Virus genome (UHGV): UHGV-1369056
From: a virus
Direction: 5' to 3' (one strand)
DNA length: 39,253 nucleotides
Program-made: the position numbers and the translations under genes
In this document: piece by piece, positions 7,627 to 36,595 of the stretch
Layout: each line of letters begins with the position of its first letter
Numbering within the stretch: the stretch's first letter is position 1
Notes under the pieces: generated by a model
The model's database searches: none
The model's input: the letters and a program-made list of their open reading frames with translations, nothing else
What the model was told of the DNA's origin: nothing

Positions 7627-7887
7627 ATGTTTAAGAACTTAATGTTCAATCGTTATACCAGTACATTCCACCTGTCTAACAACCCATTCGCTTGCATTGA
7701 GCGCAACGAGAAGCTGGGCTACTTCGGGAAGGCCGTTAAGCTGTCACCTACAGTCTTCGCTCTGATTACTCCGGGTAAAGCTGAAGAGGCTCGCCAGAAG
7801 CGTGAGACCAACGTACCCGTGGTCTACACTAAATGGCCTCGTGTTCGTCTGTTCGTTGAGTTCGTGAAGGAGGTGGTCAATGATTAA
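7627..7887 (+). CDS. 1.6: gp1.6-like protein (86 aa)
   Basis: Position and size equivalent to T7 gene 1.6; strong SD aaggagg; weak similarity only. Confidence 0.55.
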   Translation: MFKNLMFNRYTSTFHLSNNPFACIERNEKLGYFGKAVKLSPTVFALITPGKAEEARQKRETNVPVVYTKWPRVRLFVEFVKEVVND

Positions 7888-8320
7888 GGTCGGGGATGTT
7901 GTTCGCTACGCTGGGACGCATAGTCAATTTATTGGCCGCTATGATGGTAAGGTTCTTAGCGTATGTAACTCAGGGGACTCAGTAGAGGTGAAATGGCCTG
8001 GGCTTATTGAGCCAGTTAAACACGGTAAAGCCGCACTAATTATCACCAATACTGTTCAGGACAAACCAGAAGTCCGTGACGACGCTGTACGCAAGCCATC
8101 CCACTATCAGGTCTTTGACGGCGTAGAGTCCATTGAGATTATCGCCCGGTCCATGACTGTCAGCGAGTTCCGTGGTTTCTGCATGGGTAACGTCCTGAAG
8201 TATCGACTACGAGCTGGCAAGAAGTCCGAGCTGGCTACTATGGAGAAGGACCTGAACAAAGCGGCCTTCTATCAGGAGCTGTTCGACCTGCATAAGGGTA
8301 AATGCTATGATTCCGAGTGA
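7880..8320 (+). CDS. 1.7: gp1.7-like nucleotide kinase (C-terminal domain conserved, N-terminal region divergent)
   Basis: The C-terminal 75 aa (KPSHYQVFDGVESIEIIARSMTVSEFRGFCMGNVLKYRLRAGKKSELATMEKDL...HKGKCY) closely match the T7 gp1.7 C-terminus as recalled; SD gaaggagg. Confidence 0.8.
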   Translation: MIKVGDVVRYAGTHSQFIGRYDGKVLSVCNSGDSVEVKWPGLIEPVKHGKAALIITNTVQDKPEVRDDAVRKPSHYQVFDGVESIEIIARSMTVSEFRGFCMGNVLKYRLRAGKKSELATMEKDLNKAAFYQELFDLHKGKCYDSE

Positions 8321-20812: not shown

Positions 20813-20835
20813 ACTAAACTATCACTATAGGGAGA
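20813..20835 (+). promoter_or_regulatory. Phage RNAP promoter with GGGAGA initiation region, ACTAAACTATCACTATAGGGAGA
   Basis: Best consensus copy; +1 to +6 GGGAGA as in the strongest T7 promoters; upstream of the major capsid gene (as T7 phi10). Confidence 0.9.
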
Positions 20836-22112: not shown

Positions 22113-22116
22113 TTGA

Positions 22117-22156
22117 AACCCCTTGGGTGCCTTCGGGTGCTTGAGGGGTTTTTTTT
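22117..22156 (+). terminator. T-phi-like late terminator
   Basis: aaCCCCTTGGGtgccttcgggtgcTTGAGGGGTTTTTTTT: GC-rich hairpin plus T-run, very similar to the T7 T-phi sequence (AACCCCTTGGGGCC...TCTTGAGGGGTTTTTTG) and in the same place after the capsid gene. Confidence 0.9.
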
Positions 22157-22166
22157 CGGAGGATTA

Positions 22167-22598
22167 ATGAAGGTATGTATAGGATGCCACACGGAGAAGG
22201 ACTTGGGGTCTTTCACGCCAAATGGCAGGACATGTAAGGGCACACAGAAATACAGAAGCAGATGCCGAGAGTGCGAGAACTCAAGGCAGGCTGCCATACG
22301 AGAGGAAGCTCCCAACAAATCACGATACTCAGCGGAAAGACTTAAAGGCTACCAACTTAAAAGCTCGTTCGGTATGACATATGACGAGTGGTTCTCCCTT
22401 ATGGAGTCTCGTGGTTGGGCCTGTGAGATTTGCTCGCGAACAGTAGAGACATCTGGTAGAACACTGGCTGTAGACCACAGTCACTCCACTGGTGAAATAC
22501 GAGGCGTGCTTTGTCAGAGGTGCAACTGTGCCATAGGACTCCTAAGTGAGAATCCAGAGCATATTGCAAACGCTATACGCTACCTTAAAGGAGATTAG
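22167..22598 (+). CDS. HNH endonuclease (endonuclease VII-like), probable homing endonuclease
   Basis: HNH motif AVDHSHSTGEIRGVLCQRCNCAIG plus N-terminal Cys cluster CIGCH...C...CREC. ATG 22167 with SD ggagga is preferred over 22113, which lies in the terminator. Codon usage atypical for this genome (aga, agg, ata). Confidence 0.8.
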   Translation: MKVCIGCHTEKDLGSFTPNGRTCKGTQKYRSRCRECENSRQAAIREEAPNKSRYSAERLKGYQLKSSFGMTYDEWFSLMESRGWACEICSRTVETSGRTLAVDHSHSTGEIRGVLCQRCNCAIGLLSENPEHIANAIRYLKGD

Positions 22599-22600
22599 TA

Positions 22601-23167
22601 ATGGCTCAATACATTCCACTGAATGCTAACGATGACTTAGACGCCATCAACGATATGTTAGCTGCTATCGGTGAACCAGCAGTCCTACAGCTTGACGAGG
22701 GGAACGCTGATGTCTCGAACGCTCAACGTATACTGCATCGTGTCAATCGTCAGGTCCAAGCTAAAGGCTGGAACTTTAACATCAACGAAGCTGCTGTCCT
22801 GACACCTGATGTCCAAGACAATAGGATTCGATTCCTTCCGTCATACCTTCGTGTAATGACTGCTGGGGCCACCAGCTACTACAGCAACATGGGTGGATAC
22901 CTGTACGACCTGTCCACTCAGTCAACCACTTTCACTGCCCCTATCACGGTAGAGCTTGTGGAGATGAAGCCATTCTCCGAGATGCCTGTGGTCTTCAGGG
23001 ACTACATCGTCACTAAAGCTAGCCGTGAGTTCAACGCTAAGTTCTTCGGTAGCCCAGAGTCAGAGCTATACCTTCGTGAGCAGGAAGCAGAACTCTATCA
23101 GCAGGTTATGGAGTACGAGATGGACACTGGTCGCTACAACATGATGTCAGACATCGGGAGGGACTAA
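22601..23167 (+). CDS. 11: Tail tubular protein A, gp11 homologue
   Basis: 188 aa; INDMLAAIGEP, RILH.VNRQVQAKGWNFNI, RDYIVTKASREFN.KFFG.PE and MEYEMD.G.YNM match T7 gp11. Confidence 0.93.
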   Translation: MAQYIPLNANDDLDAINDMLAAIGEPAVLQLDEGNADVSNAQRILHRVNRQVQAKGWNFNINEAAVLTPDVQDNRIRFLPSYLRVMTAGATSYYSNMGGYLYDLSTQSTTFTAPITVELVEMKPFSEMPVVFRDYIVTKASREFNAKFFGSPESELYLREQEAELYQQVMEYEMDTGRYNMMSDIGRD

Positions 23168-23394
23168 TGGCTAGTCACAACCTGAAGATTCACCGCCAGC
23201 ACTTTGGTCCGGTACAGCTAGGTCTAAAGACAGCAGAGCTGAGACTTAACGACCGGGACTTTAAGGTTGGCGATTGGCTTATCCTGAATGAATGGGACAA
23301 CGGGTATACTGGACAACAGGTAGCGCGTAAGGTTGTCCACATTGCTGACGTTGGTGACATCGCTGAAGGATACGTCCTAATGAGTATGATTTAA
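23167..23394 (+). CDS. DUF3850-like (ASCH/PUA-like fold) small protein
   Basis: 75 aa; LKIHRQHFGPVQLGLKTAELRLNDRDFKVGDWLILNEW fits my recollection of the DUF3850 pattern (H.LKI.P.YF..V..G.KT.E.R.NDRDF.VGD.L.L.E); start overlaps the gp11 stop (TAATG). Confidence 0.55.
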   Translation: MASHNLKIHRQHFGPVQLGLKTAELRLNDRDFKVGDWLILNEWDNGYTGQQVARKVVHIADVGDIAEGYVLMSMI

Positions 23395-23403
23395 GGAGGG
23401 CCT

Positions 23404-25761
23404 ATGCCACTAATTACTCAATCAATCAAGAACCTTAAAGGTGGCATTAGCCAGCAGCCTGATATACTGAGGTTCTCAGACCAAGGCGAGGCACAGGTTA
23501 ACTGCTGGTCATCCGAGAGTGATGGCCTCCAGAAGCGCCCACCTACAGTCTTCAAGAGACGTCTTAACATCGACGTTGGGAGTAACCCTAAGTTCCACCT
23601 GATTAACCGTGACGAGCATGAGCAGTATTACATCGTGTTCAATGGGTCCAACATTCAGGTAGTTGACTTGAGTGGCAATCAATACTCAGTGTCCGGTGCG
23701 GTAGATTACGTTAAGTCCTCCAACCCACGAGATGACATCCGTGTCGTTACCGTGGCAGACTATACGTTCGTCGTTAACCGTAAGGTTGTCGTCAAAGGTG
23801 GGAGCGAGAAGGCACACTCTGGTTATAATCGTAAAGCTCGTGCTTTAATTAACCTGCGTGGTGGACAGTATGGTCGCACCCTTAAGGTAGGAATAAATGG
23901 AGGCGTTAAGGTAGAGCATAAGTTGCCAGCAGGTAATGATGCCGAGAATGACCCTCCTAAGGTTGATGCTCAGGCTATCGGTGCGGCTCTGAGAGACCTT
24001 CTTGTTGCTGCTTACCCTACCTTCACGTTCGACCTTGGGTCTGGATTCCTGCTAATCACAGCTCCTTCAGGGACTGACATTAACTCAGTGGAGACGGAGG
24101 ATGGCTACGCTAACCAGCTAATAAGCCCAGTCCTAGACACTGTGCAGACAATCTCTAAACTACCTCTTGCAGCTCCTAATGGGTATATCATTAAGATTCA
24201 AGGTGAGACAAACAGTAGCGCCGATGAATACTACGTGATGTATGACTCCAACACTAAGACGTGGAAGGAGACAGTGGAGCCGGGAGTTGTCACTGGTTTC
24301 GATGCCACCACAATGCCACATGCTCTGGTCAGACAGCCTGATGGCTCCTTTGAGTTCAAGACTCTGGACTGGTCTAATCGTGGTGCTGGTAATGATGACA
24401 CAAACCCTATGCCTAGCTTCGTGGATGCTACAATTAACGATGTGTTCTTCTACAGGAATAGGCTGGGGTTCTTGTCAGGCGAGAACGTAATCATGAGCCG
24501 TTCAGCCAGCTACTTTGCGTTCTTCCCTAAGAGTGTGGCGACATTAGGTGATGATGATCCTATTGACGTAGCTGTAAGTCACCCTAGAATCTCAATCCTT
24601 AAGTATGCCGTTCCGTTTAGCGAGCAGCTACTACTTTGGTCAGATGAGGTGCAGTTCGTGATGACAAGCTCAGGGGTCCTTACCTCGAAGTCTATCCAGC
24701 TTGATGTAGGCTCAGAGTTTGCCTTAGGAGATAATGCCCGACCGTTCGCTGTAGGACGCTCAGTCTTCTTCTCAGCACCTCGTGGGTCATTCACCAGCAT
24801 TAAGCGATACTTCGCTGTAGCAGATGTGTCTGACGTGAAGGATGCCGATGATACCACTGGTCACGTACTGTCCTATATCCCTAACGGGGTGTTTGACATT
24901 CAGGGAACAGGGACTGAGAACTACATCTGCGTCAACTCTACAGGTTCATACAACCGAATCTACCTCTACAAGTTCTTGTTTAAGGACGGCATACAGCTTC
25001 AAGCCTCTTGGTCGCACTGGGAGTTCCCTAAAGCTGATAAGATTCTGGCGTCTGCGTCGATTGGCTCTACCATGTTCATTGTTCGTCAGCACCAAGGCGG
25101 CGTGGACCTTGAGCACCTTAAGTTCATCAAGGAGGCAACTGACTTTCCATTAGAGCCGTATAGACTCCACGTTGACTCCAAGGTGTCTATGGTAATACCA
25201 ATTGGCTCATACAACGTTGACACACATAAGACTACGGTTGACATTGGTGCTGCTTATGGTGGCAACGCTCCGTCTCCCGGTCGGTACTATCTGATTGACA
25301 GTCAGGGTGCTTATGTGGACCTTGGGGACTTGACTAGTATCTCTACTGTGGTTACCCTCAACGGCGATTGGTCAGGACGCACAGTGTTCATCGGACGGCC
25401 CTATCTGATGTCCTACAAGTTCTCACGGTTCCTGATTAAGATTGAAGATGATAGGGGCACTCAGTCGGAAGACACTGGTCGTCTACAGCTTCGTCGGGCT
25501 TGGGTCAACTACAAAGACACTGGCGCTCTGAGACTCATTGTCAGAAATGGTGAGCGGGAGTTCGTGAATACCTTCAACGGGTACACCCTTGGTCAGCAAA
25601 CCATCGGGACTACAAACATTGGTGACGGGCAGTATCGCTTCGCTATGAATGGTAACGCATTAACCACGAGTCTAACCTTAGAGTCCGACTATCCTACCCC
25701 AGTGTCAATCGTTGGGTGTGGCTGGGAGGCGTCATACGCTAAGAAAGCTCGTTCCGTCTAA
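23404..25761 (+). CDS. 12: Tail tubular protein B, gp12 homologue
   Basis: 785 aa in the gene 12 position, the size of T7 gp12 (794 aa); SD aaggaggg. Confidence 0.9.
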   Translation: MPLITQSIKNLKGGISQQPDILRFSDQGEAQVNCWSSESDGLQKRPPTVFKRRLNIDVGSNPKFHLINRDEHEQYYIVFNGSNIQVVDLSGNQYSVSGAVDYVKSSNPRDDIRVVTVADYTFVVNRKVVVKGGSEKAHSGYNRKARALINLRGGQYGRTLKVGINGGVKVEHKLPAGNDAENDPPKVDAQAIGAALRDLLVAAYPTFTFDLGSGFLLITAPSGTDINSVETEDGYANQLISPVLDTVQTISKLPLAAPNGYIIKIQGETNSSADEYYVMYDSNTKTWKETVEPGVVTGFDATTMPHALVRQPDGSFEFKTLDWSNRGAGNDDTNPMPSFVDATINDVFFYRNRLGFLSGENVIMSRSASYFAFFPKSVATLGDDDPIDVAVSHPRISILKYAVPFSEQLLLWSDEVQFVMTSSGVLTSKSIQLDVGSEFALGDNARPFAVGRSVFFSAPRGSFTSIKRYFAVADVSDVKDADDTTGHVLSYIPNGVFDIQGTGTENYICVNSTGSYNRIYLYKFLFKDGIQLQASWSHWEFPKADKILASASIGSTMFIVRQHQGGVDLEHLKFIKEATDFPLEPYRLHVDSKVSMVIPIGSYNVDTHKTTVDIGAAYGGNAPSPGRYYLIDSQGAYVDLGDLTSISTVVTLNGDWSGRTVFIGRPYLMSYKFSRFLIKIEDDRGTQSEDTGRLQLRRAWVNYKDTGALRLIVRNGEREFVNTFNGYTLGQQTIGTTNIGDGQYRFAMNGNALTTSLTLESDYPTPVSIVGCGWEASYAKKARSV

Positions 25762-33131: not shown

Positions 33132-35132
33132 ATGTCCACGATTACACAATTCCCTTCAGGAAACACTCGGTACAGGATTGAGTTCGACTACCTAGCCAGA
33201 ACGTTTGTTGTTGTTACGCTGGTGAATAGCTCTAACCCTGCCCTGAACCGTGTACTAGAAGTTGGTCGAGATTACCGATTCCTTAATCCAACGATGATTG
33301 AGATGTTGGCTGACCAATCAGGTTTCGACGTCGTTCGTATTCACCGTCAGACTGGAACTGACTTAGTGGTAGACTTCAGGAATGGCTCAGTGTTGACAGC
33401 TAGTGACCTGACCAATTCGGAGCTTCAGGCTATCCATATTGCAGAAGAAGGGCGAGACCAAACTGTTGACTTAGCGAAGGAATATGCCGATGCTGCTGGT
33501 AACTCTGCTGGCAGCGCTAAGGATAGCGAGGACGAAGCACGACGAATAGTTTCGAGTATCAGGGAGGCTGGTCTAATTGGCTATATTACCCGTAGCTCCT
33601 TCGAGAAAGGCTTCACCGTTACACTATGGAACGAGGTCCTGCTAAGGGAAGAGGATGGTTATTATTACCGCTGGGATGGTGCTCTCCCAAAAACAGTGCC
33701 TGCAGGTTCAACCCCTGATTCCAATTGGACTAACGTAGGTAAGCTGAATGGGCTTGATGAGCACTCACCTGAGAACTTTGGGGCAATCCCGAACGACCCC
33801 AGCTTTGACTGTCTACCTGCTATAAAATTGGCCATAGCTACAGGCACATTAAACCTTGATGGCAAGGCTACCTACCACGTAACAGATGAGGTTGTTATCC
33901 CCTCTTACCTACGTGGGAATCTAAATGGGGCAACAATTAAAGCAATTGGTCCAACATGGCCTGCATTAAAATCTGTTGTTCGTGTTAGTAAATTTCCTAT
34001 TGGAACCAAAACCGTTGATGTAGCTAATACTGAGAACCAAGTACGAGGGCTACGTTTGATTGGCAGTCTTAACATAGACTGTGCAGACATTGCATCGTAT
34101 GGTTTTTACGCACGACTAATGTGTGCAGAATCCGAGATGGGTAGTATCTATGCATATAATGCTAATAGATATGGCATTGTAATGTTTGCTTGCTGGTATT
34201 TTCAAATGGGTACTCTCCATGCAAACAACTGTGCAAGGGGCGTGGCATTAGGTTATTCAACGGAAGGTGAGCAAGGGGATACCTATGTAAATGCTACACA
34301 CTTCCCTCACATTAGTGCATGGGGTACAGATAAGTCTACTGGACTAGGTTATGACCCAATCACAGATGATGCGAGTAAATATACGATAGGTGCTGGTATT
34401 ATCTTAGGTCGTGGTTTATCTACTAGTGTTGGTGTGATTTGCTCTGAGAATACATCTGGTGCTGGTGTGGTAACAATGGACCCTGCTGCGTGGGACATTG
34501 GGGTTATGTACTGCGAGGGCAACAGTAAAGACTTCACTCAGGTGGGTGAGCCGAAGGTATCATTATTGTCGTCTAAGGCTAACAGCGAGAGTCATACACT
34601 TACCATCTCTACACTTCACCTATCTGCTGGTTGTGGTATCTTAACCAGAAGTAATCAAGAGCGTGTGCTAATCAGAAGTCTTTATCGTTTTGATAATTCA
34701 AGAACCTTCCACTCCTATTGCACAGCAGACACAGTAGAGGTTGGTAGCAGCAACTACTATGTACTTAACGGGCATAATTACAACGCACCTGCTGCACTTA
34801 TTAAGGAACCCCTTAATGTAGATTTTGTGCGCTCAGGGCTGACTTTGAGTGAGTGGACAACTACCGTTATCGGTCATTTCGCCGGTAGTACAGCAGAACA
34901 GCAGCTTTATGTTAAGTTGCCAGCAAGTCCCAGTGGTCTGGACCTACAGATAGCTAGTGAGGAGGGGACAGAATATATCACTGTAACCGGTACAGATTTT
35001 AAAGCATCTCTAACTAAGAAAAGACTACCCAGTAAATTATATGAGATAAGGATTGGTGGGGTATCTACAGTACCCGTTGCCGATTGCTCTGTTCTAATTA
35101 GAAGTAGGAAAGGTGATTGGTACTACTGGTAA
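33132..35132 (+). CDS. 17: Tail fibre / tailspike protein (gp17 homologue): conserved N-terminal adaptor domain plus divergent C-terminal domain
   Basis: The N-terminal ~150 aa (FDYLAR.FVVVTL...DYRF...DF.NGSVL.A.DL...[12 protein letters not shown]) match the T7 gp17 N-terminus. The remainder is unrelated to T7, AT-richer, with Gly/Asn-rich repetitive segments that suggest a beta-helix. Confidence 0.9.
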
Positions 35133-35730: not shown

Positions 35731-36168
35731 ATGCTCGAATTTTTAAAGAGAGCGGCTCCGTGGTTACTTGCAGCAGTGATGTTTGCTGGTGGCTACCACA
35801 CCGCTAACAATAAGTGGGAGGCTAAGGTCAATGCAGAATACACCTCGAATCTTAAGGCATCGGAAGATACAAGGCTTGCTGTCCAAGCTGAAGTCAACAA
35901 AGTGTCCAAACGGTTTCAGGACGAAATGTCCTCGTTGGAAGGCAGCACTGATAGGATTATTGCTGACCTTAAGTCTGACAATAAGCGGCTGCGCGTCAAG
36001 GTCAACACCTCAGGTCTCACCGAGTCAGATGTCAGTCGATGCTTCCCTAATGGTAGAGTCGAACTACACCCAGAAACTTCTAAAAGTCTTATCCGAATAA
36101 CTCAGGAGGCAGACCTTAAGGAGAAGGCGCTTCAGGACACAATAAGGAGGCTCCAAGGTGTTAAGTGA
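35731..36168 (+). CDS. 18.5: i-spanin (Rz-like, gp18.5 homologue)
   Basis: 145 aa, N-terminal transmembrane segment (WLLAAVMFAGGY), coiled-coil-like remainder; position after gene 18. Confidence 0.8.
   Translation: MLEFLKRAAPWLLAAVMFAGGYHTANNKWEAKVNAEYTSNLKASEDTRLAVQAEVNKVSKRFQDEMSSLEGSTDRIIADLKSDNKRLRVKVNTSGLTESDVSRCFPNGRVELHPETSKSLIRITQEADLKEKALQDTIRRLQGVK
35831..36100 (+). CDS. 18.7: o-spanin (Rz1-like lipoprotein, gp18.7 analogue) embedded in the +1 frame of gene 18.5
   Basis: Embedded ORF contains a signal-like KAALIGLLLTLSLTISG followed by Cys (lipobox-like ISGC; Cys codon at 35990-35992) and a Pro/Ser-rich mature part. Start uncertain (ATG 35831 or 35783). Confidence 0.5.
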   Translation: MQNTPRILRHRKIQGLLSKLKSTKCPNGFRTKCPRWKAALIGLLLTLSLTISGCASRSTPQVSPSQMSVDASLMVESNYTQKLLKVLSE

Positions 36169-36595
36169 TTACTACAAAGTGGACCAGGCGAGTCCATCCG
36201 GTCTGGTCTCCGTTAGGACTGGAAAGCCTGTGGGGACATTAAGTCGGATGGGATATTGGATAGTACAGACACGAAGTCTAGGCAGTAAGCGGGCACATCG
36301 CGTGATATGGGAACTAACCAATGGTCCTATACCACATGGTATGCAAATAGATCACATCGACAGGAACCCCAGCAATAATACCTTAAGTAACTTACGGCTC
36401 GTTACTGCCGCTGAGAACACTTGGAATACGGGTAGCCATTATGACTCTAAGACGGGAGTGAAGTGCGTTACCCGTCACCAGAATGGTTATAGGATTCAGG
36501 TTAAACGCGGGAATGTCTATATGCGAACAACACGTCCTACTTTAGAGGAGGCTATCTCTGTCCGGGACCTAATGCTGGAGGGACTCTATGTCTAA
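36158..36595 (+). CDS. HNH homing endonuclease
   Basis: HNH motif [26 protein letters not shown]; GTG start at 36158 with strong SD aaggagg 7 nt upstream, overlapping the 18.5 stop; codon usage atypical (ata, agg, aga); inserted between 18.5 and 19. Confidence 0.8.

Follow-up and report, generated by a model that had tools for sequence, protein, structure and literature searches.

ASCH-domain proteins, among the closest described relatives of the protein considered here, are defined by the octapeptide GxKxx[E/T/S]xR (bioRxiv 10.64898/2026.02.27.708502). Nineteen of them were tested in that preprint, and ac4C was removed from tRNA by members of the GKTR and GKER types; the octapeptide lysine and glutamate were essential for this activity in TthASCH, EOLA1 and TRIP4, no activity towards the free nucleoside was seen with ZmASCH or TRIP4_ASCH, and some ASCH proteins bound tRNA or DNA in EMSA (bioRxiv 10.64898/2026.02.27.708502). 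Another ASCH protein, YqfB of Escherichia coli (PDB 9KYF/1TE7), is an N4-acetylcytidine amidohydrolase of the GKTR type with the catalytic residues Lys21, Thr24, Arg26 and Glu74 (PMC9599836).

A solved structure of the DUF3850 family (PF12961) is that of 3IUW, an 83-aa structural-genomics protein of Enterococcus faecalis named “activating signal cointegrator” (NP_814290.1), which is a bacterial or prophage protein from outside any T7-like tail operon and is without a published function. In addition, ParB-CTPase-DUF3850 fusions have been described that are enriched in phages and prophages, are uniquely linked to parA and have DUF3850 in place of the canonical ParB HTH, their function being stated as unknown (2025 PNAS, PMC12704722). 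Our literature searches returned no biochemical or genetic experiment on any DUF3850 protein, in agreement with the remark of the first-pass annotation that the family has no established function in phages.

In phage T7 the tail gene 11 is directly followed by gene 12, as had also been noted at first pass, with a spacer of only 23 nt between them. The window analysed here, the whole stretch of 39,253 nucleotides of virus genome UHGV-1369056, belongs to Kayfunavirus (K1F-like Studiervirinae, a T7 relative), and in it a small gene of the DUF3850 family lies between these two genes.

Genomic context and expression signals

The following features, all on the + strand, define the locus:

20815..20833, +, phage RNA polymerase promoter, equivalent of phi10 and nearest promoter on the 5' side (motif TAAACTATCACTATAGGAA)
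22113..22157, +, Tphi-like terminator 3' of gene 10 (terminator scan, sequence)
22601..23167, +, gene 11, tail tubular protein A (Pfam Tube, 3e-46)
23156..23162, +, Shine-Dalgarno GGGAGGG of the DUF3850 gene, within the 3' end of gene 11 (sequence)
23165..23169, +, TAATG stop/start overlap from gene 11 to the DUF3850 gene (sequence)
23167..23394, +, DUF3850 (ASCH/PUA-like) gene, a single domain of 75 aa, 8.5 kDa, pI 6.4 (ORF finder)
23221..23256, +, codons G19-R30 (GLKTAELRLNDR), encoding the ASCH octapeptide GxKxxExR followed by the DUF3850-specific N-D-R (conservation in 208 members)
23393..23400, +, Shine-Dalgarno of gene 12 (AAGGAGGG), overlapping the DUF3850 stop codon (sequence)
23404..25761, +, gene 12, tail tubular protein B / nozzle, ATG at 23404 (Pfam Phage_nozzle, E=0)

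According to the ORF finder the DUF3850 ORF starts with an ATG and its translation begins MASHNLKIHRQHFGPVQLGLKTAELRLNDRDFKVGDWLILNEW. The junction DNA at its start reads GGGAGGGACTAATGGCT, so that the gene 11 stop codon TAA (23165-23167) and the ATG (23167-23169) have one base in common; the 75-aa ORF originally described at this junction, sharing 1 nt with gene 11, is thus found by both the ORF finder and direct reading of the sequence. The Shine-Dalgarno GGGAGGG lies five bases 5' of the ATG. At the other end of the gene the stop codon is TAA (23392-23394), and the Shine-Dalgarno of gene 12 that overlaps it is similar to the 11/12 spacer of Cronobacter phage GW1 (TAATAGGAGGTGATAATG).

Searching with the promoter motif, which was derived from the annotated phi9 promoter of phage PE3-1, yielded 11 promoters in the window versus 0.01 expected by chance, none of them located between the Tphi-like terminator and the end of gene 12. 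Genes 11, DUF3850 and 12 would thus be transcribed by read-through from phi9/phi10, since no promoter follows Tphi, and with this read-through the DUF3850 product would be a late (class III) protein. The promoter and terminator layout around genes 10-12 is the same in T7. Judging from these signals, we infer late expression of the ORF together with translational coupling to gene 11.

Two minus-strand ORFs in the same interval (23190-23360 and 23224-23340) were treated as spurious, because they are short and lie inside a plus-strand gene under purifying selection. An Rfam scan of the whole window returned nothing at threshold and hence no sign of an RNA element that would explain the region. 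The base composition of the DUF3850 gene (GC 0.482 versus 0.499 for the window, with an unremarkable GC3) gives no signal of recent horizontal transfer. A nearby ORF (22167-22598) carries an Endonuclease_7 domain (Pfam) and is endonuclease VII-like.

Family assignment and fold

The proposal that the small protein fits the DUF3850 pattern held up when it was compared with Pfam: DUF3850 (PF12961) matched residues 4-73 over profile positions 2-76 of 77 (E=1.9e-19) with 70.1 bits against a curated gathering threshold of 22.9 bits, and ASCH matched with 26.2 bits (E=1.4e-5; gathering threshold 21.2 bits). No other Pfam family, and in particular no nuclease family, was matched, and a scan of the protein against NCBIfam gave no family match. 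The structure 3IUW was recovered at 1.2e-10 by sequence and at 5e-24 using the family profile, and the AlphaFold2 model of the window protein (mean pLDDT 96.1, from a 104-sequence alignment) has the fold of this solved member, a PUA-like beta-barrel of the ASCH superfamily. Membership of the protein in the DUF3850/ASCH/PUA-like family is therefore solid.

PHROG 986, which is named “RNA-binding protein”, matched at E=2.8e-35, and the phage proteins collected in PHROG 986 and PF12961 share with the window protein the same domain and an enrichment in phages and prophages. The “RNA-binding” label that they carry was passed on by annotation transfer and does not denote a measured property. Many of them have N- or C-terminal extensions and are encoded in early or replication regions, whereas the window protein consists of the 75-aa domain alone and its gene lies between tail genes. 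A free-standing homing endonuclease was considered and rejected, as no HNH, endonuclease VII, GIY-YIG or LAGLIDADG domain was found by Pfam; likewise, a partition-like ParB-CTPase-DUF3850 protein was rejected, the window protein being a single 75-aa domain with genes 11 and 12, and no parA, as its neighbours.

Occurrence, selection and loss in Kayfunavirus

At the nucleotide level, the 11-12 region of the window shares 97-98.5% identity with that of Escherichia phages TM1, PE3-1, JSS1 and many other Kayfunavirus genomes. By tblastn, a 100% identical protein is encoded by several GenBank phages, and at least 155 phage records contain the protein at 80% identity or more. Alleles of 61-85% identity occupy the identical 11/12 site in metagenomic and isolate T7-like genomes, including Pectobacterium phage LET1 and contigs of ~40 kb, with their start overlapping the gene 11 stop; in divergent relatives (L012, L086 and L088) the same TAATG is found, the DUF3850 ORF starting at the final base of gene 11. 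The gene is thus the majority state at the 11/12 junction of Kayfunavirus and not peculiar to the window genome; more than 150 public genomes of Kayfunavirus already record the ORF, the family to which it belongs and its place. The possibility named at first pass, that the ORF is not conserved, does not agree with this retention at one junction in alleles down to 61% identity. The further remark that its placing inside the structural module is unusual fared less evenly: it is correct with respect to DUF3850 genes elsewhere (see below), but within Kayfunavirus the position is that of the majority.

Between divergent pairs, in which synonymous sites are saturated, dN/dS (Nei-Gojobori) is 0.06-0.14 for the DUF3850 gene, comparable to the 0.11-0.20 of gp12. 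A chance ORF is not compatible with such ratios, nor with the Pfam score and the number of phage records given above. The region is mosaic: relative to the window, L086 and L087 are 98-99% identical in gp11, 68% in the DUF3850 protein and 74% in gp12, and this drop in identity after gp11 places a recombination boundary at the 11/DUF3850 junction.

Several close relatives do without the gene. The type phage K1F matches the window at 99% identity in gp11 and 97% in gp12, and yet its genes 11 and 12 themselves overlap by TAATG. The alignment with phage pO2 reveals that exactly 237 nt are missing, from the DUF3850 ATG to the base preceding the gene 12 ATG, and gene 12 of pO2 takes over both the GGGAGGG Shine-Dalgarno and the overlap of the absent gene. 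Phage GW1, which also lacks it, has the T7-like order of TAA, Shine-Dalgarno spacer and ATG. The gene is hence accessory and dispensable for building the virion, and a tail or virion component of the T7 type is made most improbable by its absence from K1F with near-identical gp11 and gp12, from pO2, from GW1 and from T7. The GW1/T7 arrangement would represent the ancestral state, into which the ORF was probably inserted with preservation of the gene 12 Shine-Dalgarno, while K1F and pO2 appear to reflect secondary, precise deletions.

The 11/12 junction tolerates extra genes. In the Klebsiella phage IL33 (Przondovirus) an endonuclease VII gene occupies the same junction, and in phage B1 the DUF3850 gene is followed by a further ORF of 158 aa. 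IL33 and the window are alike in carrying an insertion at the 11/12 junction of an otherwise collinear module; yet the extra genes of the IL33 type are homing-type nucleases, whereas the window ORF has no nuclease match and is vertically maintained across divergent alleles.

DUF3850 beyond Kayfunavirus

An exhaustive search of 1.84 billion cluster representatives (50%-identity clusters) with the DUF3850 profile gave 16,153 matches at E<=1e-3 and 5,401 at E<=1e-10, many of them with extensions. Phage genomes encoding the domain include those of Kagunavirus, T1-like, P2-like, lambdoid, Listeria, Enterococcus and Gordonia phages and of cyanophages, and the nearest relatives outside the T7 group are 55-65% identical proteins from Erwinia and enterobacterial siphophages and prophages. 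In non-T7 viral contigs the neighbouring genes encode NinB, NinG, NinX, RusA, Dam/D12/N6_N4 methylases, helicases, primases, GPA, Mu Gam and HNH proteins; the phage neighbourhoods of the family are therefore replication, recombination, modification and nin modules and not structural ones, which makes the position in a tail operon atypical for DUF3850. A recurrent partner gene was sought among up to three genes on each side of the 64 non-T7 IMG/VR loci in which the gene was placed in an ORF, and none emerged, as the 342 neighbours fell into 246 clusters.

Domain fusions were surveyed with Pfam in 97 long members. DUF551 was found in 11 of them, a MazG-like dATP/dGTP pyrophosphohydrolase and HTH domains of LexA, Crp and MarR occurred as single cases, and most extensions had no Pfam match. 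Ten longer ORFs from viral contigs included one with a DnaA_C HTH and none with ParB; some N-terminal extensions in such ORFs may be artefacts of ORF calling.

Conserved residues and a putative base-binding pocket

In an alignment of 208 family members, each less than 60% identical to the query, the residues H4, K7, K21, E24, R26, N28, D29, R30, G35, D36, L40, E42 and G49 are conserved in 97-100% (K21 and E24 in 99%), and S73 is conserved in 93%. An F or Y occupies positions 13 and 32 in every member; at position 69, 86% have Y and at least 92% an aromatic residue. The window protein has all of these residues, those at the aromatic positions and S73 included. Its octapeptide G19-L-K21-T-A-E24-L-R26 fits the ASCH pattern, and the Lys/Glu dyad is shared with the ASCH proteins of the GKER type (Thermus TthASCH, 2DP9, human EOLA1 and the TRIP4 domain). 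However, GKER-type proteins comprise ~120-160 aa with extra helices, whereas DUF3850 is a minimal barrel of 75 aa that adds the invariant residues H4, N-D-R, D36 and E42. The 19 ASCH proteins tested in the preprint include no DUF3850 member, and the requirement for the lysine and glutamate was thus established in other subfamilies. For the aromatic residues that position the nucleoside in TthASCH, Tyr14 and Tyr81, the aromatic positions 13 and 69 of the family are putative counterparts.

Similarity to YqfB is marginal (E about 0.2). In the profile alignment K21 and R26 are in register, Thr24 of YqfB faces E24, and the alignment ends by residue ~47-55. Since the threonine is replaced by glutamate and the alignment stops before Glu74, which has no counterpart in the window protein, we do not consider the latter an amidohydrolase of the YqfB type.

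By analogy with ASCH structures, the conserved polar residues would line one pocket. The low isoelectric point and tiny size of the protein argue against a generic binder of polyanions. The DUF3850-specific residues H4, N28-D29-R30, D36 and E42 exceed what a simple deacetylase model calls for and may mean another substrate or metal-assisted hydrolysis.

Possible functions

That the gene encodes a real, selected and non-structural accessory protein of the DUF3850/ASCH type we regard as highly probable. Its origin might lie among the small genes that siphophages and prophages carry in their early regions, from which it would have been drawn and then fixed at the 11/12 junction, one of several gene-accepting junctions of the structural module. 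Expression would proceed from the late class III transcript extending past Tphi, and translation through TAATG coupling and the gene's own Shine-Dalgarno, which would yield a late product in roughly gp11-like amounts. The pocket, presumably built from H4, K7, K21, E24, R26, N28, D29, R30, D36 and E42 and including the Lys/Glu dyad, might then accommodate one nucleobase, probably a modified one, belonging to RNA, DNA or a free nucleotide; such binding is to be expected because the full polar pocket is kept, including an octapeptide whose dyad is catalytic elsewhere. By the same analogy to ASCH amidohydrolases, the most likely reaction would be hydrolysis of an exocyclic N-acyl-type group on the bound base, as by an ac4C deacetylase, and the outcome would be an altered chemistry of host or phage nucleic acids or nucleotides in the cytoplasm late in infection. 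As a whole, this combination of accessory origin, late expression and a deacylase with a base pocket is in our opinion moderately probable; the specific deacylase activity taken by itself is put forward tentatively and could well prove wrong. Any benefit must be conditional, as close relatives without the gene are viable; at the same time, K1F and pO2, from which it was lost precisely, demonstrate how easily it is deleted, and its retention elsewhere therefore implies that a benefit exists.

A possible but rather doubtful alternative to a base-modifying enzyme is a non-catalytic protein that binds RNA or DNA only, be it as a reader of modifications or as a trans-acting module like that of the ParB-DUF3850 proteins, and that influences translation, the stability of transcripts or transactions on DNA at a late stage of infection. 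The PUA-like fold is common to the YTH, EVE and SRA readers, tRNA or DNA binding by some ASCH proteins was seen in EMSA (bioRxiv 10.64898/2026.02.27.708502), the ParB fusions encoded beside parA use DUF3850 instead of the canonical HTH (PMC12704722), HTH fusions exist among DUF3850 members, and PHROG 986 bears its annotation as “RNA-binding protein”. The last point is, however, a transferred annotation, a protein of 75 aa with a pI of 6.4 offers little basic surface, and an invariant set of Lys, Glu, Arg, Asp, Glu and His without an aromatic cage is typical of catalysis rather than of reading. A tail assembly factor or minor virion protein, i.e., a small beta-barrel that aids the assembly of gp11 and gp12 or rides in the tail, would account for the placement within the tail operon but is hardly credible given the natural variants that lack the gene. 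The virion data at hand are shallow on this point: gel-band proteomics of phage B1 identified six proteins and reported neither the 75-aa ORF40 nor the tail tubular proteins, and the Citrobacter phages SH3 and SH4, for which virion LC-MS/MS data exist, have genomes without the gene.

Also highly improbable is a passenger without function, an ORF that is selfish or hitch-hikes and persists only because its removal would disturb the expression of gene 12. The junctions 11/12 and Tphi/11 do gather mobile genes (endonuclease VII of IL33, the endonuclease VII-like ORF of the window, the 158-aa ORF of B1), and the loss in K1F and pO2 was precise and harmless, but strong purifying selection (dN/dS 0.06-0.14 across alleles of saturated synonymous divergence), the preservation of every family-invariant residue in the window protein and persistence of the gene in more than 150 genomes speak against this reading. 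Very unlikely, too, is a role in counter-defence in which the pocket removes, converts or sequesters modified mononucleotides and thereby blunts Metis and PUA-Cal-HAD. These defences are triggered by m6dAMP, which rises in T7 infection when it is released by degradation of the host chromosome, and one of the m6dAMP sensors is itself a domain of the PUA/ASCH clan (bioRxiv 10.1101/2025.11.05.686725, 10.64898/2026.01.15.699771). The gene is accessory and patchy in the manner of anti-defence genes, and in one family member the domain is joined to a dATP/dGTP pyrophosphohydrolase. Yet neither preprint describes a phage inhibitor of this kind, counter-defence there consisting of DNA mimics or loss of the nuclease (bioRxiv 10.1101/2025.11.05.686725, 10.64898/2026.01.15.699771); moreover, the PADLOC models return only PDC-M07B (14 bits, E=0.007), which is not meaningful, and the pocket has no conserved aromatic cage.

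A bolder proposition, still unlikely in our view and argued from analogy, is that the 8.5-kDa protein serves the phage as an “eraser” or scavenger of a modified base. As an eraser, it would be an ASCH deacylase reduced to its minimum, taking ac4C or another, related N-acyl mark off the tRNA of the host late in infection and thus retuning translation; as a scavenger, its pocket would remove or sequester modified mononucleotides and blunt sensing by Metis or PUA-Cal-HAD. If either version were true, DUF3850, with ~16,000 representatives mostly in mobile elements, would constitute a class of effectors, hitherto undescribed, with which phages act on the epitranscriptome or against defence, and the window protein would be the smallest known ASCH enzyme.

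As a genome feature the gene is ordinary and matters little for the window itself. It is of interest as a member of a very large, mobile-element-centred family with a crystal structure and strikingly invariant polar residues, for which the reports on ac4C deacetylation by ASCH proteins and on bacterial sensing of modified mononucleotides suggest concrete assays. The Kayfunavirus copy offers a convenient entry, as it combines a bare domain with a tractable T7-like phage and with natural, near-isogenic phages lacking the gene (K1F and pO2). In GenBank, the same ORF is variously labelled “hypothetical protein,” “RNA-binding protein,” “activating signal cointegrator” and “DUF3850 domain-containing protein.”

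The gene 11/gene 12 junction

In phages K1F (L085, position 1940) and pO2 (L082, position 2067), which have no DUF3850 gene between genes 11 and 12, exactly 237 nt are missing, beginning with the ATG of the DUF3850 gene and ending with the last base before that of gene 12 (window 23167-23403). The gene 11 stop is joined to the gene 12 start as TAATG in both phages, and their gene 12 is placed behind the Shine-Dalgarno sequence that is used by the DUF3850 ORF in the window. The state in K1F and pO2 suggests that the segment between the ATGs of the DUF3850 gene and of gene 12 was secondarily and precisely deleted.

The T7-like relatives L086, L087 and L012 carry divergent DUF3850 alleles at the same junction, and their comparison with window 22601-25761 reveals a sharp mosaic boundary between gene 11 and the DUF3850 gene: identity is 98-99% in gp11, and drops to 68-85% in the DUF3850 protein and to 74% in gp12, while that of gp13 changes independently (67% in L086, 96% in L087).

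Different extra genes are found at the 11/12 junction in other T7-like phages. Klebsiella phage IL33 has an endonuclease VII there (L084, 2000-2503), and in phage B1, ORF41, an extra hypothetical ORF of 158 aa, is flanked by the DUF3850 gene on one side and gene 12 on the other (PMC12785254).

An endonuclease VII-like gene upstream of gene 11

The window itself carries an endonuclease VII-like ORF, located between a Tphi-like terminator upstream and gene 11 downstream:

22167-22598, + strand, intact endonuclease VII / His-Me finger ORF (Pfam Endonuclease_7, 2.1e-19); the start called by the ORF finder is a TTG at 22113

None of 216 related phage records covered this stretch (window 22167-22598), matches being limited to its first ~175 nt, and a two-piece remnant was present in phage Penshu1 only. 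Among 50,697 phage records, the top full-length protein match had 38% identity. The ORF resembles a homing-type endonuclease of the free-standing kind and, at that site, appears almost confined to the window genome.

A putative second homing endonuclease directly precedes, and slightly overlaps, the large terminase gene 19 (start 36588):

36158-36595, + strand, HNH_3 ORF (Pfam HNH_3, 6.7e-21)

Promoters and other genes

Allowing up to three mismatches to TAAACTATCACTATAGGAA, we found 11 phage RNA polymerase promoter-like sites in the window, compared to 0.01 expected by chance; together they make up a T7-like promoter map of the window genome:

2503, 5823, 7579, 8555, 10906, 16988, 19809, 20815, 25788, 33065 and 38451, + strand, promoter-like sites

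Three further genes were annotated:

33132-35132, + strand, gene 17, tail fibre/spike of 666 aa (Pfam)
981-1325, + strand, Ocr DNA-mimic homologue at the left genome end (Pfam ocr, 9.3e-32)
7880-8320, + strand, DUF3310 protein in the early/middle region

The gene 17 protein begins with a T7 tail-fibre N-terminal domain, followed by Tail_spike_N (TSP1/Gp66); its remainder, including the receptor-binding part, gave no further Pfam domain matches.
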